Shown here one piece after another: positions 1-36,811 of a stretch of DNA of 64,000 nt. The notes beneath the pieces were generated by a model. That model searched no databases and was not told the origin of the DNA. It saw only the letters and a program-made list of their open reading frames with translations. The first letter of the stretch is position 1. The number at the start of each line of letters is the position of its first letter. A program made the position numbers and the translations under genes. The stretch spans positions 15,048 through 79,047 of the forward strand of contig JASEJN010000003.1 of NCBI GenBank assembly GCA_030016385.1. Reading direction: 5' to 3'. Source of the stretch: Clostridiales bacterium (GTDB lineage Bacteria > Bacillota > Clostridia > Clostridiales > Oxobacteraceae).

Positions 1-505
1 TTCTTAAGAACCACGTATAATTCACAATAGGAATTCCATTTGCCTTAAATATATCCTTCATTATAATCTTATCCATTCCGACTGCCGAGCCTGTAACCGC
101 ACTACCTACATAGGGAATATTCGCAAGCTCGAAGAGTCCTTGCATTGTCCCATCTTCGCCGTGCATGCCATGAAGTGCAGGAAAGGCAACATCCACCTTG
201 ATCGATTCAGCTTCCTTTTTGAAAAGCCCCGCTTTAAACGGATAAAAGTACAGACATTTCATGGATGGCACAGGCGGCAGGAACACCTTTTTTACACTGC
301 TTAATAGTCTTTTGATATCTTTATAATTCTTAATATTTAAAAGCTCTTCACCTGTATACCAATCTCCATCTTTGCTCACATAAACAGGCACCACATTATA
401 TTTTGACCTGTCTATATTGTCCATCACCTGAAGTCCTGTAATAATTGATACCTCATGTTCTACAGAACGTCCGCCAAACATAACGGCAACATTTAGTTTA
501 GGCAT
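1..505 (-). CDS. ddl: D-alanine--D-alanine ligase, N-terminal ~168 codons (3' end runs off the window)
   Basis: Not in the ORF track because there is no stop in the window. Reverse-strand translation from ATG (503-505) reads [50 protein letters not shown]...[47 protein letters not shown]. This is the typical Ddl N-terminal domain and the start of the ATP-grasp domain. A GGGAGAG Shine-Dalgarno lies upstream. The gene is adjacent to murF. Confidence 0.85.
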
Positions 506-542
506 TTTTTAATACTCTCCCTTAAATATAAATTTACTTCGA

Positions 543-2192
543 TTACTTTTCATTATAATTATCCGGAAGATCATTTTCAAATAAAACAACATCATTTACC
601 TTTACTATCTGCCCTATCTTCTTTTGAGCCTCATTCAAATCAGGCACGACTATTATCTTATCTTCCGGGAAATTCCCCATTTTGAGCCCTTCTATGATGG
701 GTTTCGATCTTTTTATTCCAACAAGTATAGCAAGATCACAACACTTAGACATTACCTTGCCAAACTTTTTATTTTCCTCATATTCAATGGAGCCAAGCTC
801 CACCATGCCCGGCGTCACGACTATCCTGCTGCCGTCGGTAAATTCCTTTATAGCTTCCAGCGCTTCTCTTGAACCAACAGGATTTGAATTGAATGCATCG
901 TCTATTACAGTAACACCGTTATTTGTCTTGAGTATTTCCAATCTGTGAGGGACAGGTTCTATTTTCGATATTCCCCTCTTTATCTCATCTGGTGTAAGAC
1001 CGAGTTTGAGGGCTGCACAAATTGCTGCCAGCAAGTTGCTTACATTATGCTTCCCCAGAAGCCTCGTCTGACATTCAAACTCTATTCCATCCTGGCTCTT
1101 AACCTTGAATCTCAATCCTTCCTTTGAAATTTTTATACCCTCGGCAGTTAAAAATATATCGCTGTCGCCGCCTTTTATGCTGTATATAAGCGTTTCAATG
1201 CCTGTTTTCCTCGCAAGGTTCAAGCAGTATGAATTATCTCCGTTAAATATGGCCGTTCCATAATAAGGCAAGGCCTGTATAAGTTCGTACTTTGTCTTAA
1301 CGATATTTGCAAGAGATTTAAATGTTTCAAGATGCTGCGGCCCTATGGATGTTAAAATGCCGACAGTAGGATTTACCAATTTACATAGCGTTTTTATATC
1401 TCCAACATTCCTTGCGCCCATCTCACAGACAAATACTTCATGATTATCTTTCAACTGTTCTCTTATTACCCTTGTTATACCCATCGGAGTATTGTAACTT
1501 TCCGGAGTCATAAGCGTATTGTATTTTTCAGACAGTATTGTCTTCAAAAAATACTTCGTACTTGTCTTCCCATAACTTCCGGTAATACCTATAACCTTTA
1601 GGTTTTTCATTCCTGCGATTTTAAGCTGGGCTATCCTGTAATATCTATAATGCACCAGCATTTCAAATGGGTATATTAAAAAAGTCGATAGAGCCATATT
1701 CAAAGGATGAAGAAATTTTATTAAAGACAGATACAGTATAAAAAATATTATATTCTTGGCTAAAAAGCAAGCCGCACCCGTCCATAACAATAAAAGCAGC
1801 AGGTTAGTTATAAAAAGCCTTATGGCTCTGGGTGTGAACCTTAAAGGTTTTTTAGCCTTTCTTTTAACGGACATGTTTTTATAAATCATATAGACGTTTA
1901 CAAAAGCCCATACGATAAAAGCGCTGTAGCCCAATAAAACTTCGTTCTTGGTTACATAATACAAAGCCAGAAAAAGTCCGGCAACAGCAAGCACAATAAG
2001 CTCCTTTAAAAACAAAGAACATATATTGTTGGTTATCCACCGTAAATACTGGGTAGGTTTGTATCCTTCAAGCTGTGCCATATGCAGCTGCCTGATACTC
2101 AGAAGGTATACAGCCCAAGCGAATATTGAAGCGGATAAAATATATAATATTACAGTCATTCTATTCATTCCCTTCAAAATATTTGGAAACAA
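543..2192 (-). CDS. murF: UDP-N-acetylmuramoyl-tripeptide--D-alanyl-D-alanine ligase (MurF-like Mur ligase) with a ~190-aa N-terminal multi-pass membrane domain
   Basis: Mur ligase P-loop GITGSYGKTSTK. C-terminal motifs DDAFNSNP and PHRLE are typical of MurF. Adjacent to ddl. Residues ~10-190 are 5-6 hydrophobic helices instead of the usual soluble domain 1. The true start may be an internal Met (2168 or 2159), because the 2192 start overlaps the upstream gene by 32 nt. Confidence 0.75.
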   Translation of the reverse strand: MFPNILKGMNRMTVILYILSASIFAWAVYLLSIRQLHMAQLEGYKPTQYLRWITNNICSLFLKELIVLAVAGLFLALYYVTKNEVLLGYSAFIVWAFVNVYMIYKNMSVKRKAKKPLRFTPRAIRLFITNLLLLLLWTGAACFLAKNIIFFILYLSLIKFLHPLNMALSTFLIYPFEMLVHYRYYRIAQLKIAGMKNLKVIGITGSYGKTSTKYFLKTILSEKYNTLMTPESYNTPMGITRVIREQLKDNHEVFVCEMGARNVGDIKTLCKLVNPTVGILTSIGPQHLETFKSLANIVKTKYELIQALPYYGTAIFNGDNSYCLNLARKTGIETLIYSIKGGDSDIFLTAEGIKISKEGLRFKVKSQDGIEFECQTRLLGKHNVSNLLAAICAALKLGLTPDEIKRGISKIEPVPHRLEILKTNNGVTVIDDAFNSNPVGSREALEAIKEFTDGSRIVVTPGMVELGSIEYEENKKFGKVMSKCCDLAILVGIKRSKPIIEGLKMGNFPEDKIIVVPDLNEAQKKIGQIVKVNDVVLFENDLPDNYNEK

Positions 2193-2925
2193 TTATATTG
2201 AAATCATTTATCTTATCCAGATATGAAAAATGTCCGGCTCCTTTGAATACTACAAGCCCTGCATCAGGTATTTCCCTTTCCATTATCTTTGCGTTATTAA
2301 GCGGTGTATCCTTATCGTTTTCACCCCATATCAGAAGAACAGGGGCTTTGATATTCTTAAGATACCCTTTTAAATCCTGGTTTACCACTTTTACAAAGGT
2401 TCCTCGCAGATTCGCCGATTCTCTATAATCTTTTGAACCATACTTTTTATAAAATTTTTCTAATTTGGCATTTTTATCTCTTTCAGGCGTAAACATAATA
2501 TATAACTTTTTCATAATCTTAAATCTATAAACCCTAAAATAATATTTTATAGTCCTCTTCGGAAGTATTCCCGCACTGTCCACCAGGACCACCTTATCCA
2601 CTTTTTGCGGATACAGTGCCGCAAACATTATGGATACCCTTCCTCCAAAGGAGTGCCCTATGATATTTGCTTTTTCGATTTTAAGTTCCTCAAAAAATCT
2701 AACGAGCATTCTGGTATAATCGTCCACACCCCACGGTCTGTCTGGCAATGTCGATTGTCCAAACCCTGGAAAATCCAGAGCGTAAACTTTGAACTTTTGC
2801 GACAGATAGTTAAAAACAGGCAAAAAACTATCCGCTCTGCCCCCCCAGCCATGAAGAAGCACAACATTCTGACCATGGCCAGCCTCTTTATAATATATAT
2901 CCATATTATCTATTTTTAAATACAT
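2161..2925 (-). CDS. alpha/beta-fold hydrolase
   Basis: HGWGG oxyanion motif and GHSFGG nucleophile elbow; C-terminal GAGHF. Start placed at MYLKIDNMDIYY (2925) rather than at the ORF-track Met at 2973. Confidence 0.8.
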   Translation of the reverse strand: MYLKIDNMDIYYKEAGHGQNVVLLHGWGGRADSFLPVFNYLSQKFKVYALDFPGFGQSTLPDRPWGVDDYTRMLVRFFEELKIEKANIIGHSFGGRVSIMFAALYPQKVDKVVLVDSAGILPKRTIKYYFRVYRFKIMKKLYIMFTPERDKNAKLEKFYKKYGSKDYRESANLRGTFVKVVNQDLKGYLKNIKAPVLLIWGENDKDTPLNNAKIMEREIPDAGLVVFKGAGHFSYLDKINDFNIIVSKYFEGNE

Positions 2926-3041
2926 CAAACTCGACCTTTCAAGCAGCCGCGCTTTAAACGCACAGCCCACCATAATATGATATGTATGAATACTACTCTA
3001 TATTATATATAAAGACAGGTTAAATTGAAAGAGAATTAGAA

Positions 3042-3083
3042 AAAGGTGCATGTTTTATATTCGAATATAAAACATGCACCTTT
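3042..3083 (-). terminator. Rho-independent terminator ending the upstream glycan-catabolism transcription unit
   Basis: Near-perfect palindrome AAAGGTGCATGTTTTATATTCGAATATAAAACATGCACCTTT (about a 19-20 bp stem), followed on the minus strand by TTTTTCT. It lies 13 nt after the stop of the 3096-4250 gene. Confidence 0.75.
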
Positions 3084-3095
3084 CCATATGGATAT

Positions 3096-4250
3096 TCAAG
3101 ATTCAGCATGATCGGAGGCTATGTCTTCCCCGCTCCATATTTTCTGCTGGGTCCATTTTTCATCCTCATCTGTCCAGAATTCATCTTTATAAGAAAGGCC
3201 CAGCGGGAGGAACACTGTTGAGCATAAATAAAGGCTTCCTGTTGAGATATATCCCTCTCCCAATCCGGGCTGTCTCCCATACAACCCTATTTTAAGCCAG
3301 CCATTTTCATCAAACGTGCCAGGCGCTTCAAAACACTTTTTTATAACTGCCTGCAGTGCACATCTGACCTGCGCAGGCAGCAATCCATCAGGCAATTCCC
3401 TTTTTAATGCCATTTGCGCAAGAAGCTGAAAAGCACCGCACCTGTATGTAATCGATCTTCCTAGAGGTGGAAAAGTACCATCTGGGGAAATCAGCCTTTC
3501 CAGTACAGCAGAGTATCTTCTTGCCCTGTTTAGAATTTTTTTCTTTAATTCATCTGGAAAATTCATCTCTTTGTACATATTCGCTTTTATCAGAATAATA
3601 TCCACAAGCATCGGCTGTATGACATAACTATTATAATAATTCCAGACGAATTTCGGCCCATCGCCATATACTCCATCGCCCTTATACCATTGCTCATGCT
3701 CTTTTATTGCATAATCTATCCTGACCTCATCACATTCGCCTGTCATTATATAAAGGGCAGTTTCGACCATCGCTGAAAAAAGCAGCCAGTTGCAGTAAGG
3801 CGGACGTATTTTCCGTGTCGATTTAAGAGCCCGCACAAGATTGTCCTTAACCCTACCTTCAAGTTTTTCCCACAGTTCCCGGGGAGCCCTTACAATAGCA
3901 TTTGAAAGGAACCCGGTATCAACTAAATATTGTGAAAATACCCTTTCGTTCCCGTCAAAGGTGCAAAAGTCGGATGAAGATGGATCCGTTGCCGCATCGA
4001 TAGCTTCTCTCGCAAGTTGGGCATATTTTGACCTTAACTCTTCCTCTTCCCCCTCGCATAGATCCGATTCAAGCCAGGGTGCAATTCCTGTCAATGTGCG
4101 TCCCAATGCCTCGAGATATGTATATTTTTCTCTGCCATCTACCTTCATCTCGACGGGCATCCGAGCCTTAAGATTCCTCCTTGACATATTCTCAAGTACA
4201 GGATCAATAATTTTTATCATCATATCTAGCCAGTATTTCCTATTGTCCAT
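3096..4250 (-). CDS. cytoplasmic helical glycan-active protein, tentatively DUF2264 (GH154-related) family
   Basis: The N-terminus NRKYWLDMMIKIIDPVLENMSRRNLKARMPVE...YLEALGRTLTGIAPWLE matches my recollection of DUF2264 N-termini. No signal peptide. Last gene of a glycoside hydrolase operon. The family call was not verifiable here. Confidence 0.45.
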   Translation of the reverse strand: MDNRKYWLDMMIKIIDPVLENMSRRNLKARMPVEMKVDGREKYTYLEALGRTLTGIAPWLESDLCEGEEEELRSKYAQLAREAIDAATDPSSSDFCTFDGNERVFSQYLVDTGFLSNAIVRAPRELWEKLEGRVKDNLVRALKSTRKIRPPYCNWLLFSAMVETALYIMTGECDEVRIDYAIKEHEQWYKGDGVYGDGPKFVWNYYNSYVIQPMLVDIILIKANMYKEMNFPDELKKKILNRARRYSAVLERLISPDGTFPPLGRSITYRCGAFQLLAQMALKRELPDGLLPAQVRCALQAVIKKCFEAPGTFDENGWLKIGLYGRQPGLGEGYISTGSLYLCSTVFLPLGLSYKDEFWTDEDEKWTQQKIWSGEDIASDHAES

Positions 4251-4305
4251 TTATTGCTTCCTCCCCTTATAACAATTTGTAAGGAATTCATTTAAACTTT
4301 AGATG

Positions 4306-6273
4306 TCATTTTTCATTTACCCAGACAGTCATTTCCCCTGTTCCACGATTGGCCCAGGCGAAATATGGAATAAATTTAATATTTTCCTTATAGACCTCAG
4401 CCGAAGTATTTGCTTTATACAATTGGTCACCCCAGTTATTGTTTACCCGTTCAGCTTCAGCGGCAATAACAGGGATCCCGCCTAAAAGGTCATTATCAAA
4501 TTCAACTCTTAATTGAGATTCTTTAGGGAGTATGATTTCATGTAAGTTTGCCCCATTATCCGCCTCTTCAAGGCAATACACAACAGGTCCTCTTTGTACG
4601 GCAACCTTCCCCATATCTTCCCTGACTTTAGGATTTGCCCTAACGCGAAGTGCAGGCATTGTAAATAGCAACTCTATAGTATCTCCATCTTTCCACGTCC
4701 TGCTTATTGTTGCATAACCGTCTACGATTTTACTATAAAGCTGTATATTTTTTCCGTTTACATTTACCGACGCATTACTGCACCATCCCGGAACGCGCAA
4801 TGCTAAATCAAAGTCCTTTTCTTCCTTTAGCGAAATTTTCATGATAATCTTACCATCCCACGGATATTGAGTATCTTCAGATATTTTTATTTTACTTCCA
4901 TTTAATTCAGTTTCCACTTCCCCGCCCACATATAAATTTATGTAAATAGTTGAATCATTTTTGCTGTAAATATAATATCCAAGAGATGTAAGAAGCCTTG
5001 CTATATTAGGGGGACAGCAAGCGCAGCCGAACCACTTTTGCCTTTCGGGCTTAACATGGAATTTTGTCTGATTTTTTTTACAGGCCTCAGGTACTACTTC
5101 CAGCGGATTTACATAAAAAAATCTTTTCCCATCCCTGGACATTGCACTTATTATTATGTTGTATAAAGCCCTTTCCATAACATCTGCGTAAATGCCCTTG
5201 GGTTCTATATGCATCATCCTATTGGCAAAAAACATTAAACCGACAGATGCGCAGGTTTCAGCATATACTGTATCGTTAGGAAGATCATAATCAAAGGAGA
5301 AAGCCTCGCCATACGCCTGCGAACCTATACCCCCGGTTATGTACATTCTCTTTGACACTATATTGTTCCATAGTCTCCTGCAAGCATTTAAAAGCTCTGC
5401 ATCCCCTGTTTCAGCCGCCACATCGGCCATTCCCGAGTACATATATACCGCTCTAACTGCATGTCCGACTGCGGCAGATTGCTCTCTTACGGGCAAATGC
5501 GTTTGATTGTACTCGCTATTCTTGCTCGGCCTATTGGAAATCCTGCCGGTCCAGTTAGATATCCTCCCGCGCTTTTCCCACTCGATATCAAAATAATATG
5601 GCTTGTTTCCACGTTCATCAATAAAATATTTGCCGAGTTTAAGATATTTTTCTTCATCTGTAGCATGATATAATTTTACCAGCGCAAGTTCAATCTCTTG
5701 ATGTCCTGGGTACCCTCTTTTCTTCCCAATTTCAGGCCCGAAAACCGAATCTATATGATCTGCAAGTTTACATGCCACATTAAGCAGCTTTTTTTTGCCT
5801 GTCGCCTCATAATATGCCACGGCGGCTTCAATCATATGGCCGGCACAATATAGCTCATGGCATTCGCAAAGGTTAGTCCATCTATTCTCCGGCTCTTTGA
5901 TAATGAAATATGTATCGAGGTATCCGTCTTTTTGTTGGGCTTTCTCGATTATATCTATCACCCCATCGGCTGTTTTTTCAAGCTCGCTATCCGGATGCGT
6001 CTCAAGACTGTAAGCAACAGCTTCCAACCATTTTGCCACATCGCTGTCTTGAAAAACCATACCATAAAATTCGCCTTGTTCCATTCCTGCTGCGATTTTG
6101 AAATTTTTTATGGCATGGCTGGGGTCTGCACCGGGTATTCTATCGTTGAGCGCATCCCACTGATAAGGCAATACCACATCACGAACCAAATCGATATACT
6201 TCGACCAAAAACCATCATTGATCTTTACATTTTTTAGAGGTAGCGATACCGAGTTCTTAAATTTCGCCTGCAT
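4306..6273 (-). CDS. glycoside hydrolase family 127 beta-L-arabinofuranosidase (DUF1680)
   Basis: N-terminus VKINDGFWSKYIDLVRDVVLPYQWDALND. The Zn/catalytic cysteine motifs of HypBA1-type enzymes are present (AETCAS and FGCACCPPNIARL). 655 aa, no signal peptide. Confidence 0.85.
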   Translation of the reverse strand: MQAKFKNSVSLPLKNVKINDGFWSKYIDLVRDVVLPYQWDALNDRIPGADPSHAIKNFKIAAGMEQGEFYGMVFQDSDVAKWLEAVAYSLETHPDSELEKTADGVIDIIEKAQQKDGYLDTYFIIKEPENRWTNLCECHELYCAGHMIEAAVAYYEATGKKKLLNVACKLADHIDSVFGPEIGKKRGYPGHQEIELALVKLYHATDEEKYLKLGKYFIDERGNKPYYFDIEWEKRGRISNWTGRISNRPSKNSEYNQTHLPVREQSAAVGHAVRAVYMYSGMADVAAETGDAELLNACRRLWNNIVSKRMYITGGIGSQAYGEAFSFDYDLPNDTVYAETCASVGLMFFANRMMHIEPKGIYADVMERALYNIIISAMSRDGKRFFYVNPLEVVPEACKKNQTKFHVKPERQKWFGCACCPPNIARLLTSLGYYIYSKNDSTIYINLYVGGEVETELNGSKIKISEDTQYPWDGKIIMKISLKEEKDFDLALRVPGWCSNASVNVNGKNIQLYSKIVDGYATISRTWKDGDTIELLFTMPALRVRANPKVREDMGKVAVQRGPVVYCLEEADNGANLHEIILPKESQLRVEFDNDLLGGIPVIAAEAERVNNNWGDQLYKANTSAEVYKENIKFIPYFAWANRGTGEMTVWVNEK

Positions 6274-6358
6274 CTTTATTTTCCCCTTTCCATAGGTTCA
6301 TTTTTTATATTGAAAATATTATAAAAAGCCCTTAGAGTCTGCATGCACCTATTTTCCA

Positions 6359-7633
6359 TTATTTGATTTTCGTCAGTTTAAATAATTTCGAACTATGAGG
6401 TTTGAATTCAAATCTTACATCTGAATTAACCATGCCTGAATTTTGATGACTCCAGAGATTTCTAAGCATATATTCCCCATGTAGCCCAAGATCGGAAAAT
6501 TTAATACTTATATCCTGAACCGATTCGTTTAAATTAAACAAAGCAACATAAATTTCGTCATTATCGCCTGCAGCCGTCCATACAACTTTATCATCTTTTC
6601 TATATAGTTGCCTGTTTGAATTGGAATTTTTCAGTATAGATAATACTTCCTCATTTGTTATAAGATCCAGTGTCCACTTATCATTATGAGTCATCTCTCC
6701 TCCGAACATTAGAGGTGAACGAGCAATGCACCACAGGGACATCAATGTTACCTGCTCATCCTTGGTAAAGCCGCTCCATTTTCCCTTGCCGCCAAAAGAA
6801 GCTTCTCTCAAGCAAATATGTCCGAGGGGAAGCATATCTGCATCCGGCCAGCGGCCTGGTCCCATATGTTCATTCCAGTCAGCCAAAAGTTTAAACTGCT
6901 TATAGAGCTGTTCCCAGTTATCCCAGAAGTCTCCTGAAATACGCCACATGTTTGCATGTGCTTTCAAATGCTCGGCAAATTCCAACGGAGCAGGCCCCGG
7001 TGAAAGGCTGAGTACTATATCTCTGCTGCAATTCGATATCGCATTCTGAACTAGCTCGACTTCTCCAGCGGAATATGGGGAACAGATATCATCGACTTTA
7101 ATAAAATCGATTCCCCACCCGGCGTACATGTTGATTATAGAATTATAATATTCCTGTGCGCCTTCTTTAGACGCATCTATTCCGTACATATCGGTATTCC
7201 ATGAACATACAGAGTTGATATTTGCAATGTCTGCTGCATGTTTATCCGAGCCTAATACAGGCGTATTGGCCTTAACCGCTTGCCTGGGTATGCCTCTTAA
7301 TATATGTATCCCAAACTTAAGCCCCAATGAGTGTACATAATCGGCCAGTTTTGCAAAACCCTTTCCATCCTTTGCACAGGGAAATCTATTTGCTGAAGGA
7401 ATCAATCTGCCATACCCATCCATATCAAGATGAGCATATGGATGGTACTGAGTCGAGTCTGCCGTAGGCTCATACCATTGTATATCCACAACTATATATT
7501 CCCAGCCAAACTTTTTGAGCTTCTCCGCCATATAACCAGCATTTCCACGCACTTCCCTCTCGCAGACACTTGCTCCATAGCAATCCCAACTGTTCCACCC
7601 CATCGGTGGGGTTAGTGCTAAATTTTTATTCAT
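6359..7633 (-). CDS. glycoside hydrolase family 27 (alpha-galactosidase or beta-L-arabinopyranosidase)
   Basis: LALTPPMGWNSWDCYG N-terminal signature and the GIDFIKVDD catalytic-region motif. 424 aa, no signal peptide. Confidence 0.85.
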   Translation of the reverse strand: MNKNLALTPPMGWNSWDCYGASVCEREVRGNAGYMAEKLKKFGWEYIVVDIQWYEPTADSTQYHPYAHLDMDGYGRLIPSANRFPCAKDGKGFAKLADYVHSLGLKFGIHILRGIPRQAVKANTPVLGSDKHAADIANINSVCSWNTDMYGIDASKEGAQEYYNSIINMYAGWGIDFIKVDDICSPYSAGEVELVQNAISNCSRDIVLSLSPGPAPLEFAEHLKAHANMWRISGDFWDNWEQLYKQFKLLADWNEHMGPGRWPDADMLPLGHICLREASFGGKGKWSGFTKDEQVTLMSLWCIARSPLMFGGEMTHNDKWTLDLITNEEVLSILKNSNSNRQLYRKDDKVVWTAAGDNDEIYVALFNLNESVQDISIKFSDLGLHGEYMLRNLWSHQNSGMVNSDVRFEFKPHSSKLFKLTKIK

Positions 7634-7705
7634 TTATTTTCGCCTCTATATATTTAATATTATATCTAGATAAAAAGTATTTTCCTCTATTCAGCTTTTT
7701 TATTA

Positions 7706-9613
7706 CTATATGCGCTTTAAACATAAAAAGCTCAATGGAGGTATACTGATTTTCGTATCTTCCAGCTTAACCATGCATTTTGTTATACAGCTTGTTTCGC
7801 TTGTTTCATGCACCATGCGCCCTTTTCCTCTTAAACCATCCTCACAGATCCAATCTTTAGAAGGAAGAAGTGCTTCAAATTCTTTACCTGAATGATTAAT
7901 GATAAATAATTGCTCTTTTCCCATTATAGTTTTGGTCGCCAGAGCAAATACTCTGCTATCCCCTGTATCTACCTTTGCTGAAAAGCAAGGTTCAAACACT
8001 CTTGCAAACATGGCAAAAATCTGTCCCATACAGGATAGATAACAAGTTTCCTTTGTAGCTTCAATAATATTCTGTCCCCATGTATTGCACATATTATTGA
8101 AATTCGCCAGTGCAAATTCCCCGCCATAACTCATATAATCCAAAAGTCTGTGGGCTCCGTTCAATGCATAATTCCAGCTTATCTGCTGTGTGGAAAAAAT
8201 ATTAGCATAATCGTTGGTAATCTTGCCACTCCATACAAAATCCAAAGGCATATGTGGATCCTCAAAAGGCTCTATGCTATGACAAGACGGCAACCATTCC
8301 GTATTAACAAGTTTTAAGTTTGTCTTGTTTTTTAGGTTATATTCTCTTATTACCGGAAGTATCTTTTCTACAAATTCCGGATTGCCATTCCTATAAATCA
8401 CATAATTGATGTCTCTGCCAGCAATCTCAAGCATTTTGGGAAGCAACTCAGGGGCATATGAATATGCCGCCATCATTAATTCAATAGAACAATCTGCCAA
8501 GCGCATTTCTCTGGCAAATCTGACACATTCTTTTGCATACTGTTCTGCCGTCCATTTTCTTCCAGGTTCATTATCCATTTCAAACAGTTTAACACCATAA
8601 GGCTCTAAATGCTCATTCAGCATACGGAGACGTCCCATACCCATATCAGCATCAGCATTTAGATATTCCACCATCTGTCTTGCCTTAAAAGGTATAGATG
8701 TCATCATATTAAAACATATCTGCGGTTCAAAACCAACCAGTTGCGACAGGTGTAAAAATTCATCCAACCCTACATCGTTTTCTTCCAGTCCTCCCCAATA
8801 AAAACTCGGCTGTGATTCACGGACATTCCTATCACCCACAGAACTCTCCCAATTATAAAAGCTTGTGAAACATCCTCCTGGAAAACGTACCACACTTGGT
8901 GCCGCTTTCTTTAACTTTTCCACTACATCCTTTCTCCATCCATCCATATTATCTGCAGGCATTAAAGAAGCGAAAGAAAGTATCATGGTCCCCTTAAACG
9001 AAAATGTAATGCGGATATCAGCTATCATGCTCTCTTTTACTTTAAATATCCAATCATAATTCCTTGAAACAGTAGTTAGCCCAAATACAATTTCCTGGCT
9101 ACCTATCTGCACCCTCACTTCATGTTTCTGAGTGCTATGTATTGTATCACCGAATCCATTCAGTCCGGCCGCAGCAATATCTCCCTGTACCCCTGCAAAT
9201 AATTTAAAGCAGTATTCTCTCCCCTTCTGCAGATGAATCTCCTTTTGGACCAATCCGCAAAGCTTACCCTCTACCTCATTCATTAAGGTACAAGCAGTTA
9301 TCCCTTTGTATGTGTGAGTACCGCATGTATGTCCTATTTTAGGCTTTCCAAAGGGTTCCCAGTCAAACTCCTCATAACCGCTGTGCCAAAATGGCGCTCT
9401 GCTATCATAATGTTCTTTATCCAGTCCCAGCCATTCCCATGTTGGGCTCTTGTATTCCGGCACAATGCGGAAAGAACGATTATAGAGCATTTCGCTCCAC
9501 ATGCCGTTTACCTGTCTGCCAAAACCGGACTCTATAAAATTACCGAAAATCCTTCTATCAACAGGAGTCTTGGTCCATTCTGACAAAATCTTCAACTGAA
9601 TCATCCCATTCAA
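7706..9613 (-). CDS. divergent GH51-like clan GH-A glycoside hydrolase (putative arabinofuranosidase-like)
   Basis: VVRFPGGCFTSFYNWESSVG parallels the GH51 motif [13 protein letters not shown] seen in abfA at 23114-24598. FEMDNEP is the likely acid/base strand. Otherwise only weakly similar to the abfA paralog. No signal peptide. Confidence 0.5.
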   Translation of the reverse strand: MNGMIQLKILSEWTKTPVDRRIFGNFIESGFGRQVNGMWSEMLYNRSFRIVPEYKSPTWEWLGLDKEHYDSRAPFWHSGYEEFDWEPFGKPKIGHTCGTHTYKGITACTLMNEVEGKLCGLVQKEIHLQKGREYCFKLFAGVQGDIAAAGLNGFGDTIHSTQKHEVRVQIGSQEIVFGLTTVSRNYDWIFKVKESMIADIRITFSFKGTMILSFASLMPADNMDGWRKDVVEKLKKAAPSVVRFPGGCFTSFYNWESSVGDRNVRESQPSFYWGGLEENDVGLDEFLHLSQLVGFEPQICFNMMTSIPFKARQMVEYLNADADMGMGRLRMLNEHLEPYGVKLFEMDNEPGRKWTAEQYAKECVRFAREMRLADCSIELMMAAYSYAPELLPKMLEIAGRDINYVIYRNGNPEFVEKILPVIREYNLKNKTNLKLVNTEWLPSCHSIEPFEDPHMPLDFVWSGKITNDYANIFSTQQISWNYALNGAHRLLDYMSYGGEFALANFNNMCNTWGQNIIEATKETCYLSCMGQIFAMFARVFEPCFSAKVDTGDSRVFALATKTIMGKEQLFIINHSGKEFEALLPSKDWICEDGLRGKGRMVHETSETSCITKCMVKLEDTKISIPPLSFLCLKRI

Positions 9614-33060: not shown

Positions 33061-33963
33061 TTATTCCTTAACTCCTCCCAAAACCAGTCCTGTCATAAAA
33101 TACTTCTGCAGGAACGGATAAACACACATAATTGGCAAAGTAGCTATAACTATGGAAGCCATTTTTAATATGAACGGCTGTGTTATGCGTTCCTCGGCCT
33201 CCATTCCCTGCTGCATCTCATTTGCCCCTGATTCAAAGACAATCTCTCTCAAAACTAACTGTAACGGCCACATTTGCCGTTTTGTCAGATAAATAATTGC
33301 ACTAAAGTAAGTATTCCAGAAACCGACTATTGTAAATAGCCCCAGTGTGGCTAAAATAGGCAGGCACAGCGGCAAAACCACACGGATAAGTACTTGCATA
33401 TCATTCGCCCCGTCAATCAATGCCGCTTCTTCTATGGATGTCGGAAGATCTTTTATGTAATTTATCATCAAAATTAGATTAAATGCTCCCAAAAGGCCAG
33501 GCAGAATCATAGCCCAGAGATTGTTAAGGAGTCCCAAACTGCGAATTAAGAAATAATTTGGTATCGTCCCGCCGTTGAAAAACATCGTAATAACCCAGAG
33601 AGTCATTATAAATCTGCGTCCTTTAAAATCATTTTTAGAAAGTGGGTATGCCGTTAATACCAATAATATCATGGCACAGGCGGTGCCGACAAAAGAAATA
33701 AATAATGTATTTTTATAGCCCGACCAGATATACTGATAACCCAGTGCCATTTTATATGCAGCAGTTGTTAATCGGTCAGGTATCAGGCTGAACGGGTTTT
33801 TAAGATATGACTCATAAGGAGATAAAGAATATTTTATTACATACAAAAACGGAATAAAACAAATAATAGCGAAAAAGCCTGATATGCCATACGCTATGCA
33901 GGATAATGTTATATCGTCCCACCCTGCCTTAATAGAAGCTTTCCTTTTCAATTTTTGCTCCAT
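33061..33963 (-). CDS. carbohydrate ABC transporter permease (LplC-like)
   Basis: The EAA loop reads EEAALIDGANDMQVLIRVVLPL. Start placed at MEQKLKRK (33963), which has a GGAGAG Shine-Dalgarno 7 nt upstream. The ORF-track start at 34062 lacks one. Confidence 0.8.
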   Translation of the reverse strand: MEQKLKRKASIKAGWDDITLSCIAYGISGFFAIICFIPFLYVIKYSLSPYESYLKNPFSLIPDRLTTAAYKMALGYQYIWSGYKNTLFISFVGTACAMILLVLTAYPLSKNDFKGRRFIMTLWVITMFFNGGTIPNYFLIRSLGLLNNLWAMILPGLLGAFNLILMINYIKDLPTSIEEAALIDGANDMQVLIRVVLPLCLPILATLGLFTIVGFWNTYFSAIIYLTKRQMWPLQLVLREIVFESGANEMQQGMEAEERITQPFILKMASIVIATLPIMCVYPFLQKYFMTGLVLGGVKE

Positions 33964-34311
33964 GAGCACTCTCTCCATTCTTTTTATTTTTTTATCCCAA
34001 AATCTACTTTGATATGCTAATATCTCCCTCATTGGATTATTCAGATCTGTTTTTATAGTCAAATATAAATTATATTTCCTAAAACATTGTATTCGAATGG
34101 AAATAGTTTCATGAGTAACGATTAAGATATTTTATCCTCCTTGTACAATTAATATTGTAACAATCAGTGAATTAAATCACTGTTTTACCTGCAAATTTCA
34201 TAGTTAACCATGATAAATAAAATTCAACTCTTTTCTAAACATCAAGCACATCTTTTAGCTTCTTACCTCAGCTAATTCACCAGCACATGTTGGCCTGAAC
34301 CTTGACAAGCA

Positions 34312-34530
34312 TGTATAATATAATCCGGACTTGGAGAGTAAATGAGACTCCTCCTGGGACGGACCTAAAGGGCCGATTACCCGTAGGAAAGAGTATTTAT
34401 CCATTCCGGTAAGTCTACATGTTTTGGCTGGTTGAGGCCAGCTTTTTAGCTGGTTTCTCGTGTCACATGCAAGGTTGTTTGCTTACATGGAAAGGATGGA
34501 GGCTTTAAGTCCAATTAATCTTTAAAGGAG
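34312..34530 (+). ncRNA. candidate IS110-family bridge (guide) RNA in the 5' non-coding end
   Basis: TATAAT boxes at 34314-34324. Closing stem GGACTT (34327-34332) with AAGTCC (34507-34512). Internal hairpins CCAGCT-TTTT-AGCTGG (34438-34453) and CATGCAAG/CTTACATG (34466-34489). The position upstream of the recombinase gene matches the IS110-group arrangement. Confidence 0.35.
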
Positions 34531-34539
34531 GCATTTTTT

Positions 34540-35828
34540 ATGAATTATAGACCCATTGCAGGAATTGATGTGGGCAAGTACTTCAGTGAAATAGCTATTC
34601 TCTCACCATCTAATGAAGTTGTTGCTCGCATGAGGATTAACCATGATTTCTACGCTGACGTAAAAAGGGCCGTTGAACTGCTTAATAAAACGGAAAAGGA
34701 CTTTGCTTCAAGGCCTTTTATCGTCATGGAATCCACCGGGCACTATCACAAAATCCTTTTCCATTCACTTTGCAAAAATGGATTTGAGGTTTCTATCATA
34801 AACCCCATCCAAACTGATTCTATCAAAAATATTGGAATCAGGAAAGTGAAAAATGATAAGGTAGATGCCCGAAAGATTGCCCTGCTCTATAGATTTCAGG
34901 AGCTCAAAGCTACCAATATACCAAATGAAGATATTGAGTGTCTAAGGAACCTTTGTCGCCAGTACTACAAGCTAAATGATAAAGTCCTACCTACAAAAAC
35001 AGGCTTACCGGTACCATTGACCAGCTTATGCTCAACTTTAAAGATGTTTTTCCAAACGCCTGCTCCAAGACTGCTATGGCTGTCCTGAAGGAATACCCTA
35101 CTCCTGCCCTGATAGTTAAGGCTGACAAGAATAGACTTGTCTCTCTGATCCAGAAGGACTCTCGAAAAAACCTTAAGTGAGCAGTTGCAAAGTATGAATT
35201 GTTAATCTTAAAAGCAAGAGAGTTTGAGCCTTTAAGTATTAATAATCCTGCTAATATTGCAATGTTGGGTATATACATATCCATGGTCAAAAATCTACAG
35301 GAGAATCTGGGCAAAGTGCTCAAAGCTATACATCAGTTAATTGTTGATAATATGTCAAAGGATATACCAATGATGTCATTAACACTTGAACTGCTCAAGA
35401 TTATCCCTGGTATTGGCCTTCTGACAGCCGCTACAATTATTGCTGAAATTAGTGACTTCTCAGCTTTTTCAAAACCAAGTAAGCTAGTTGCCTATTTTGG
35501 CATTGACCCTTCGGTCAAGCAATCTGGAAAATTTACCGGTACCCAAAACAAGATGTCTAAAAGAGGGTCAGGGCTACTTAGAAGGGTACTATTCACAATT
35601 GCACTTGCCAATATACGCACAAAACGGAATAAAGAAGCTTGTAATCCCGTATTATTGAAGCTCTACAAACAGAAGTACCAGAGCAAACCTAAAAAAGTAG
35701 CTTTAGGAGCTGTTATGCATAAGCTCATTTATATCATCTTTGCCGTTCTAAGGGATAGAAAACCTTATCAGTTGCGTACTCCTGAAGAACACGCCAGGAT
35801 GCTTGCAGCAAAGCATACTGCAGCTTAA
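34540..35828 (+). pseudogene. IS110-family transposase, inactivated by one frameshift and one in-frame TGA
   Basis: The N-terminus MNYRPIAGIDVGKYFSEIAIL...VMESTGHYH is the DEDD RuvC-like domain. The C-terminus IPGIGLLTAATIIAEISDFSAFSKPSKLVAYFGIDPSVKQSGKF is the Transposase_20 domain. The reading frame shifts near the A-run at 34979-34983 (...QYYKLND then YKNRLTGTIDQLMLNF in another frame). TGA at 35178-35180 interrupts ...SRKNLK*AVAKYELL. Confidence 0.85.
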
Positions 35829-36144
35829 TAGTATATGTACTTGATGCTCAGTTTTCAAGGTTCAAACTACTAACTGTGGCCAGCTATTTTATGCCTACTT
35901 AATTTAGATGGTCTTGTTGCTATACATTTTTTTGATTTTGTCATACAAAATAATTTTTAAAACTTTTAAAACAATCTCCCAAAAGTCACTTGACTTTAAT
36001 TAGCTGGTCTTAATATATGGAAAAACATGAAAATGAATTTCAATTGGGTTACAAAATGCACTATATTATTTTTGTTTTAAGCTAATTGTATGATTTTATC
36101 ATTATTAAAAAATTTCGTTATTTCCAATACTTTCAACAGATATT

Positions 36145-36811
36145 TCAACAAATCGGAAACCATCTATATAACTCTTGTGCAACTAATTCATGGTCTTTCT
36201 TGTTGGGATGATTGCACTGTGCTAATAGATCGGTTAAATCTCCGCCATCTTTGACATAACTTTTAAAAATCTTGAAACTATCTACCAGACCGACCCCATA
36301 TTTATCAGCAATTTTTCTTATTTACTCAGCATGTTGTTCCAATTCAACTCAATTCTTCGAAAGTTCATTATTTATTCCACTATAATCGGCTGTAGGAGTC
36401 AGTAGTATTACTTTTATACTATGTCTAAGCGCCTTTTCAACCATAGAGCACCAGGAATATTCCGCCCTTTTAAGACCTATTTACCTGTCATTCAATCCAT
36501 AATCTATAGTCAAAATATCAGGTCGGTGGCATAAAACTTCCGAATCAAATCACTTCTCACCTTGCTCAGAATTTTCGCCACCGATGATAGTTATTATAAT
36601 ATTAATAACTGAAAAGGGAAATCTTTCTTTTAGTTTTTTGAGCAGCAAATATGGATATGAACTAAAAGTATTAACAGTAGGTGTGAGAGAATGCCCCCGA
36701 CGGTACGCTATGACCATGGAAAACTATATTTATTGTACGGTTTTCCGGCCATTGTTTATTCAATTCTTTTATGATGCTTGATAAATAAATCCTCTTATTT
36801 GCTATACTCAT
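36145..36811 (-). pseudogene. SGNH/GDSL-family hydrolase pseudogene
   Basis: Reverse-strand reading gives MSIANKRIYLSSIIKELNKQWPENRTINIVFHGHSVPSG, then a frameshift, then TPTVNTFSSYPYLLLKKLKERFPFSVINIIITIIGGENSEQGEK*FDSEVLCHRPDILTIDYGLNDR*IGL...IKVILLTPTADYSG...KN*VELEQHAE*IRKIADKYGVGLVDSF...NHPNKKDHELVAQELYRWF. SGNH blocks I, II, III and V are recognisable. By my reading there are at least four in-frame stops and at least one frameshift. Confidence 0.7.

Follow-up and report, generated by a model that had tools for sequence, protein, structure and literature searches.

Structure and boundaries of the element

An ISCth8-like insertion sequence of the IS110 family occupies positions 34142 to 36010 (1,869 bp, plus strand, with one CT core counted at the right end) of the 64,000-nucleotide stretch of Clostridiales bacterium DNA analysed here, hereafter called the window. 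On the plus strand it carries a non-coding left end that includes the gene of a structured RNA (34326 to 34513), a transposase pseudogene (34540 to 35828) and a non-coding right end (35829 to 36010). Because the left end of the element lies at 34142, the left non-coding end measures 398 nt (34142 to 34539). The original prediction of a structured leader of about 230 nt upstream of the transposase is right as to structure and too short as to length.

The boundaries were obtained by comparing 80 loci encoding relatives with the window for the points at which similarity starts and stops. Similarity begins at 34136-34139 and stops at 36011-36014, the ends being defined on about 50 loci. The junctions, ...CCTC-CT/TGTACAAT... 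on the left and ...TTAGCTGGT-CT/flank on the right (the slash marking the junction), are the same in nearly all copies, and the CT core, found at 34140-34141 and 36009-36010 in the window, is present at both junctions in all relatives with readable ends. The ends of the clade (TGTACAAT ... TTAGCTGGTCT) are common to ISCth8. The right non-coding end comprises a -35 box TTGACT (35990-35995), the left donor TTAGCTGGT (36000-36008) and the CT core (36009-36010). One intact relative with 85% protein identity (L119, positions 2350-2375) has the right end TTAGCTTGTCT, not TTAGCTGGTCT; its proposed left donor guide is unchanged, which gives one mismatch in the donor pairing.

The flank adjoining the left end consists of the left target and the CT core (TTATCCTC-CT, 34132 to 34141, plus strand), its limit being given by the onset of homology in about 50 relatives. 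Within it, the run TCCTCCT matches the left target guide window of the RNA described below, contiguously and over 7 of the 10 bases compared. In the right target flank TAATATA (36011 to 36017, plus strand), taken with the CT core, only CTT fits the sequence that the right target guide predicts (CTTTCCTA). The window copy thus looks, from these flanks, like an insertion matched on its left half alone. Insertions of IS621 directed by its bridge RNA to imperfectly matched sites have been described as "half-match" recombination (bioRxiv 10.64898/2026.08.31.748434).

The transposase gene and the state of the copy

The transposase pseudogene (34540 to 35828, plus strand) lacks one nucleotide near 34980-34981 and contains an in-frame TGA at 35178-35180, positions at which intact relatives have an extra base and TGG, respectively. 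Residues encoded by 34540-35085 match PF01548 (DEDD) and those encoded by 35199-35825 match PF02371, while both halves match NCBIfam NF033542, "IS110 family RNA-guided transposase"; an intact 429-aa relative scores above the cut-off of NF033542. These domain matches and the two lesions confirm the earlier assignment of a broken IS110-family transposase gene. The closest named relative is ISCth8, with 78% transposase identity, and unnamed metagenome proteins reach up to 86%.

In the genome assembly (126 contigs, 97% complete), a draft in which insertion-sequence copies may be collapsed or unassembled, neither a second DNA copy of the element nor a second match to the RNA model was found. At the protein level no cognate transposase was detected in the assembly, just two matches of 27-28% identity on contig C116. 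The intact recombinase ORF expected of an autonomous IS110 element is lacking both in the element and elsewhere in the assembly. Since the recombinase gene is broken and the assembly holds no second copy or cognate enzyme, the copy is most likely a recent relic.

It had been suggested at the outset that, with its recombinase broken, the RNA might be either a relic or a guide serving intact copies in trans; the lesions were found as described, and no other copy was found in the assembly. Continued use would mean that the RNA, transcribed from the internal promoter described below, serves an intact ISCth8-like recombinase that is absent from the draft assembly or collapsed in it. Such a role would agree with the score of the window RNA, which lies inside the range of elements with intact genes (203 vs 198-244 bits), with the ability of IS621 bridge RNAs to act in trans (PMC11208160) and with the fragmentation of the assembly, but the whole assembly lacks any partner for it, and a gene with only two lesions points to a recent inactivation, which would leave an intact-looking RNA anyway. 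We therefore regard use in trans as improbable, and the RNA gene as structurally intact but most likely a recently orphaned relic.

In the family to which the window genome belongs, a further decayed copy of the element was observed (loci L003 and L014, G003:C48), with 87-90% DNA identity. Relative to the window copy, about 154 bp are missing from its transposase gene, and it breaks off past the position matching 35562. It lies at a different site, as beyond its cut-off there is no match to the window.

The 1.9-kb "intergenic" stretch between two glycan-uptake loci can now be annotated as a dead IS110 element in which the guide-RNA gene is intact.

Structure and conservation of the RNA

The RNA gene (34326 to 34513, plus strand) was delimited by a full-length match to a covariance model built from 14 sequences and the structure derived from them. 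The RNA proper would extend from about 34327 to 34512 (186 nt). The window copy scores 202.9 bits (E = 8e-45) with this clade model and 186.8 bits with a broader model. The model matches 57 loci, on the coding strand in all of them; 55 of these matches are full-length and directly 5' of a transposase, and the remaining two are cut by a contig end. Its reach includes relatives at just 40-46% protein identity. No ORF of at least 60 aa had been noticed between the TATAAT boxes and the transposase ATG, and indeed the sole ORF found is one of 49 aa on the minus strand (34255-34404).

The leaders of 34 distinct relatives could be aligned from about 34291 to the ATG. A further alignment, that of the covariance-model matches, has standard pairs in 96% of its pair cells, and both partners have changed in 35 of its 42 pairs; because this alignment was fitted to the model, the counts lean towards structure. 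None of 500 shuffles reached the observed pairing values, and slid registers gave 38-49%. All 40 consensus pairs can form in the window copy. RNAalifold recovered the hairpin between the target guides and the stems of the donor arm, and duplex folding joined the 5' end GGACUUGGAG to the 3' end CUUUAAGUCC in all relatives, compensatory changes included. An all-against-all scan of columns for covariation was discarded as too noisy owing to G-U pairs.

The closing helix P1 joins 34327-34336 (GGACUUGGAG) to 34503-34512 (CUUUAAGUCC) over 10 bp and is supported by covariation, with all 11 aligned pairs changed on both sides and 92-96% of cells paired; compensatory examples in relatives include GGAUUU/AAAUCC and GGACA/UGUCC. 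The long-range stem first proposed between GGACTT (34327-34332) and AAGTCC (34507-34512) is thus maintained in relatives by compensatory changes, and is really 10 bp long. All the other motifs first reported, among them TATAAT at 34314-34319 and at 34319-34324, were likewise located at their positions.

Inside P1, the weak stem P2 (GUAAAUG, 34338-34344, with UAUUUAU, 34394-34400) closes the target-binding loop. It involves columns that the model left unpaired, 74.9% of its cells being paired vs 34-43% in slid registers, and one of its pairs alternates between A-U (15 sequences) and G-C (14 sequences). The apical hairpin of the target-binding loop (34355-34383) was identified by RNAalifold and by pair counts, with many compensatory changes. 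A GGAG(G)/CCUCC stem masking the left target guide was also considered: its cognate energy is -7.09 vs -6.40 kcal/mol for non-cognate combinations (p about 0.002), and no claim is made for it because the competing P1 pairing has covariation support.

The outer stems of the donor domain have as 5' strands CCAUUCC and GUAAG (34401-34413), whose partners are GGAUGG (34494-34499) and CUUAC (34482-34486); one A of GGAAUGG is missing in the window copy, which leaves a 1-nt bulge in the outer donor stem. The apical hairpin of the donor-binding loop (helix 8, UGAGG-CCAGC...GCUGG-UU-UCUCG, 34433-34460) has 9 of 10 pairs changed on both sides. The CCAGCT-TTTT-AGCTGG hairpin seen initially at 34438-34453 is present, and its CCAGC/GCUGG stem covaries in relatives (e.g. 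CCAAC/GUUGG and CCAGU/ACUGG). The second internal hairpin put forward, CATGCAAG (34466-34473) with CTTACATG (34482-34489), did not hold: the letters are there, but CAUG in the 3' arm varies freely opposite an invariant 5' arm. The latter is the right donor guide, and the partner of CUUAC is GUAAG at 34409-34413. Conserved structure among homologous copies of the insertion sequence, in the form of compensatory stem changes, was supported in relatives from other genomes.

It was also observed that GGCUGG of the left donor guide can alternatively pair with CCAGCU (34426-34448), forming a terminator-like hairpin followed by UUUUU, in competition with the CCAGC/GCUGG hairpin. By analogy with CazIS110-1 (see below), such a hairpin might yield a short RNA without the donor arm.

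Guide segments and their DNA partners

Four segments of the two loops have counterparts in DNA, two matching the flanking target and two the element's own ends. Guide segments and real flanks were taken from every copy, and cognate combinations were compared with copies having a different guide by a permutation test covering 42 left-target (LT) and 39 right-target (RT) site-guide pairs, with 17 distinct guides each.

The left target guide ACUCCUCCU (34347-34355, plus strand) is identical to the top strand of the left target and CT core. Over the 8 nt before the core, the cognate match is 6.12/8 vs 4.34 for non-cognate combinations (p<=1e-4). Eleven copies match at 10 of 10 bases (e.g. L068, L076, L061 and L070); GGCCGCCCCT, TGATATTCCT and AACTCCCCCT are individual cases of a match at 10 of 10. 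In the right target guide UAGGAAAG (34384-34393, plus strand), AG at 34390-34391 reads the CT core and is followed by the handshake bases A34392 and G34393. Over the 7 nt after the core, cognate flanks match at 3.95/7 vs 2.46 for non-cognate ones (p<=1e-4). Contiguous matching from the CT core covers 7 of 9 bases in L057, L058, L059 and L076 and 8 in L060; CTTCGAC, CTACCAC and CTTAATG are cases in which 7 contiguous bases are matched. Two closer metagenome relatives, L119 and L121, have different left target guides that again match their own flanks. The comparison of predicted loop guides with the flanks of other copies, proposed as a check of the original prediction, thus came out in its favour for both target guides.

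The right donor guide UGCAAG (34468-34473, plus strand; 34468-34475 with the handshake bases G34474 and U34475 that follow it) pairs with CT-TGTA of the left end. The arm CAUGCAAG that holds it is invariant; in 6 of 6 loci, GCAAG occurs with CT-TGTACAAT (CT-T) ends and GCUAG with CT-AGTACAAT (CT-A) ends. As read from the sequence, A34392 complements the T that precedes the donor core, and the handshake bases A34392 and G34474 are each complementary to the pre-core base of the other DNA, which is what the handshake guides of IS621 call for (PMC11208158). The segment UUGGCUGGUU (34424-34433, plus strand) matches the right end TTAGCTGGTC if two wobble positions are allowed. Since UUGGCUGGUU and TTAGCTGGTC are both invariant in all relatives, they offer no covariation to score; this invariance and a position like that in IS621 suggest that UUGGCUGGUU is the left donor guide. 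Another candidate for this role, the exact 9-nt repeat TTAGCTGGT (34446-34454 and 36000-36008), was rejected, since changes in the hairpin copy go with changes in its stem partner, the right end remaining constant.

An alternative account takes the leader for a mere structured 5' untranslated region controlling translation of the transposase or stability of its mRNA, without any guide role. The RNA ends 27 nt before the transposase ATG (34540), no terminator separates it from the ORF, and the 228-nt stretch folds only modestly better than its shuffles (z = -2.8), all of which would suit an untranslated region. This explanation is nevertheless very unlikely, as the guides covary with target flanks and element ends, whereas a regulatory leader would not track flanking DNA, and as the layout agrees with that of the experimentally solved IS621 RNA.

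Promoters and the upstream module

An internal promoter-like site, TTGGCC-18 nt-TG-TATAAT with an extended -10 (34290-34319, plus strand), precedes the RNA gene. TTGGCC (34290-34295) and TATAAT together agree with the consensus at 10 of 12 positions, the best value on the plus strand and one tied overall with two minus-strand sites. TGTATAAT or ATATAAT is kept in all aligned relatives, and the predicted start near 34326 coincides with the 5' end of the closing helix. The TATAAT box is an internal promoter-like site, from which the RNA would be transcribed, and not an edge of the element.

A second promoter is predicted from the joined ends of the element: TACAAT (34144-34149, plus strand) would supply the -10 half and, after end joining, pair with TTGACT (35990-35995) over a spacing of 17 nt into a sigma-70 promoter, both hexamers of which are conserved. 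Promoters split across the circle junction have been described in IS110 elements (PMC11208160).

Between the junction promoter and the RNA's own promoter lies a conserved upstream module (34150-34289, plus strand) with hairpins at 34165-34182, 34257-34273 and about 34280-34293 and a conserved block CTTTTCTAAACATCAAGCACA. The first hairpin precedes a U run and the last overlaps the -35-like TTGGCC box. The module shows 72-80% identity in most relatives retaining the left end; in one subgroup, homology to the window begins only at 34291, most of the module being replaced. Compensatory changes were seen by eye (CAGTGA/TCACTG vs ACAGCT/AGCTGT). The loops of the module do not vary in step with the target; that of the hairpin at 34257-34273 was tried as a second target guide and rejected, as it covaries with neither the target guide nor the flanks.

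The bridge RNA and its proposed action

We consider it highly probable that 34327-34512 is the bridge RNA of the ISCth8-like IS110 element at 34142-36010, now most likely a recently orphaned relic. The original prediction that the leader is the bridge-RNA gene of the element is borne out by a covarying RNA located 5' of an IS110 transposase and by guide-DNA covariation over about 50 independent copies. It is a genuine bridge-RNA gene in a decayed element and an ordinary member of the kind described in 2024.

In an active copy, the RNA would be made from the left non-coding end by the conserved extended -10 promoter (-10 region 34312-34319) and, after excision, also from the TTGACT-17-TACAAT promoter of the joined ends. 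It would fold into a closing helix carrying a target arm and a donor arm. In the target arm, ACUCCUCCU (34347-34355) and UAGGAAAG (34384-34391) would read both strands of a CCTCCT/T-type target around CT; in the donor arm, UUGGCUGGUU (34424-34433) and UGCAAG (34468-34473) would read the joined ends TTAGCTGGT-CT-TGTACAAT. Bound by the DEDD/serine recombinase, the RNA would hold donor and target side by side, and the two would recombine at the CT core, as in IS621.

Comparison with known systems

The left guides of IS621 have the sense sequence of LT/LD and the core, its right guides are complementary to the core and RT/RD, and recombination mediated by the bridge RNA, which brings donor and target together, was shown experimentally (PMC11208160; PMC11208158). 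The genes of the IS621 RNA and of the window RNA both lie in the left non-coding end, immediately ahead of the recombinase ATG, and both systems use a CT core; the two RNAs share the order and sense of the guides, an apical hairpin between the two guides of each loop, the UGCAAG/CTTGTA pairing with its G-T wobble and a handshake base after each right guide (PMC11208158). The two elements also have in common a -35/-10 promoter split across the circle junction and a similar RNA length (186 nt in the window, 177 nt in IS621), and a UGCAAGGUUG block occurs both in the right-donor region of the window and in the validated IS621 RNA. The sequence of the latter was found at 100% identity beside an annotated IS621 transposase in E. 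coli.

Several features set the clade of the window element apart from IS621. Its 5' and 3' RNA ends meet in a closing helix of 10-13 bp, whereas IS621 has a separate 5' stem-loop, and the predicted start of the window RNA lies about 180 nt into the left end, downstream of a conserved extended -10 of its own, whereas the IS621 RNA is begun from the junction promoter. A further difference is the conserved upstream module (34150-34289) with its three hairpins, as are the size of the recombinase (429 aa vs 326 aa) and the target, Shine-Dalgarno-like CCTCCT in the clade vs ATCAGGCCT at the IS621 locus examined. A broad model (R2) gave only a 6-bit local match to the validated IS621 RNA at the donor loop, which is not significant (E = 0.85); the basis for proposing common descent with IS621 is the layout together with short shared motifs. 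A scan of 33900-36300 against Rfam 15 returned nothing relevant, and the validated IS621 RNA, taken as control, likewise had no Rfam match; because Rfam 15 holds no bridge-RNA family, this silence carries no information.

At the IS621 locus of E. coli O114:H49 strain 90-9280 (L106, positions 1770-1930), the left end of IS621 was observed to be partly duplicated. The second TGTATTATCCCTCCAGTGCAG... copy starts right after ATCGGGCCT, which encodes the left target guide of the truncated first copy. Judging from this arrangement, IS621 appears to have inserted there into its own guide-coding DNA, which mimics the target.

ISCth8 of Acetivibrio thermocellus and A. saccincola belongs to the same element clade as the window copy, with a transposase 78% identical and the same ends; the window copy differs in being a pseudogene and in its left target guide (ACUCCUCCU). 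No mention of ISCth8 was found in the literature searched. CazIS110-1 of Caloranaerobacter azorensis, likened here by description, is an IS110 element of a thermophilic member of the Clostridia (bioRxiv 10.1101/2025.10.25.684509). Its bridge RNA of about 170 nt, with loops for target and donor binding, works both in vitro and in E. coli, and an abundant RNA of about 77 nt carrying the target-binding loop alone was reported (bioRxiv 10.1101/2025.10.25.684509). The seekRNAs of IS1111/IS110 elements are the same class of guide RNA from a non-coding region, located upstream of the transposase in the IS110 type (PMC11187229); elements of the IS1111 type have the RNA on the 3' side of the gene, with its target-matching segments in reverse order (PMC11187229). 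The window element has the segment order of the IS110 type, unlike that of the IS1111 type.

Target sites, distribution and significance

Read as its reverse complement, the consensus target of the clade, TCACCTCCT/TTCA, is a strong Shine-Dalgarno sequence. At 23 of 41 distinct sites (L026-L100), an ORF of at least 60 codons starts on the opposite strand 6-19 nt from the junction, so that the element lies antisense between the promoter of the gene and its ribosome-binding site. At the junction of the window copy, no such nearby opposite-strand ORF start was found. The idea that the RNA, or its CCUCCU-containing target arm, is an anti-Shine-Dalgarno mimic, a riboregulator binding mRNA sites independently of transposition, draws on the Shine-Dalgarno nature of the targets and on the left target guide of most relatives (UCACCUCCU), which we take to resemble the anti-Shine-Dalgarno tail at the 3' end of 16S rRNA, yet it is the least probable of the explanations considered, being not required, as the likeness follows from the DNA target being a Shine-Dalgarno sequence, and being at odds with a guide that varies among copies along with the DNA flanks.

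The ribosome-binding site of the transposase itself, AAAGGAGG (34521-34536), reads TGCCTCCT/TTAAAG on the minus strand and resembles the preferred target. To judge by this resemblance, 34521-34536 on the minus strand is a possible self-insertion site.

Among 300 species sampled from the class, 21 have matches to the RNA model, as many as 8 in one genome. Whether the bridge RNA of the ISCth8 clade constitutes a distinct variant, with target guides resembling an anti-Shine-Dalgarno sequence, a helix joining its ends and an internal promoter of its own, is a question on which we are evenly divided. If it does, the target guides together (UCACCUCCU and UUCA) would home the element to strong ribosome-binding sites, in antisense orientation and just upstream of start codons, and a promoter of its own about 180 nt inside the left end, preceded by the conserved structured module, would make the RNA supply of integrated copies independent of the circle-junction promoter.

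The analysis provides a structure-annotated model of a Clostridia-wide clade of bridge RNAs and a list of natural guide variants with their matched targets. These are raw material for the engineering of bridge recombinases, enzymes of thermophiles included. Three departures from IS621 lend themselves to testing: the apparent homing to Shine-Dalgarno sequences, the internal promoter and the additional module in the left end.
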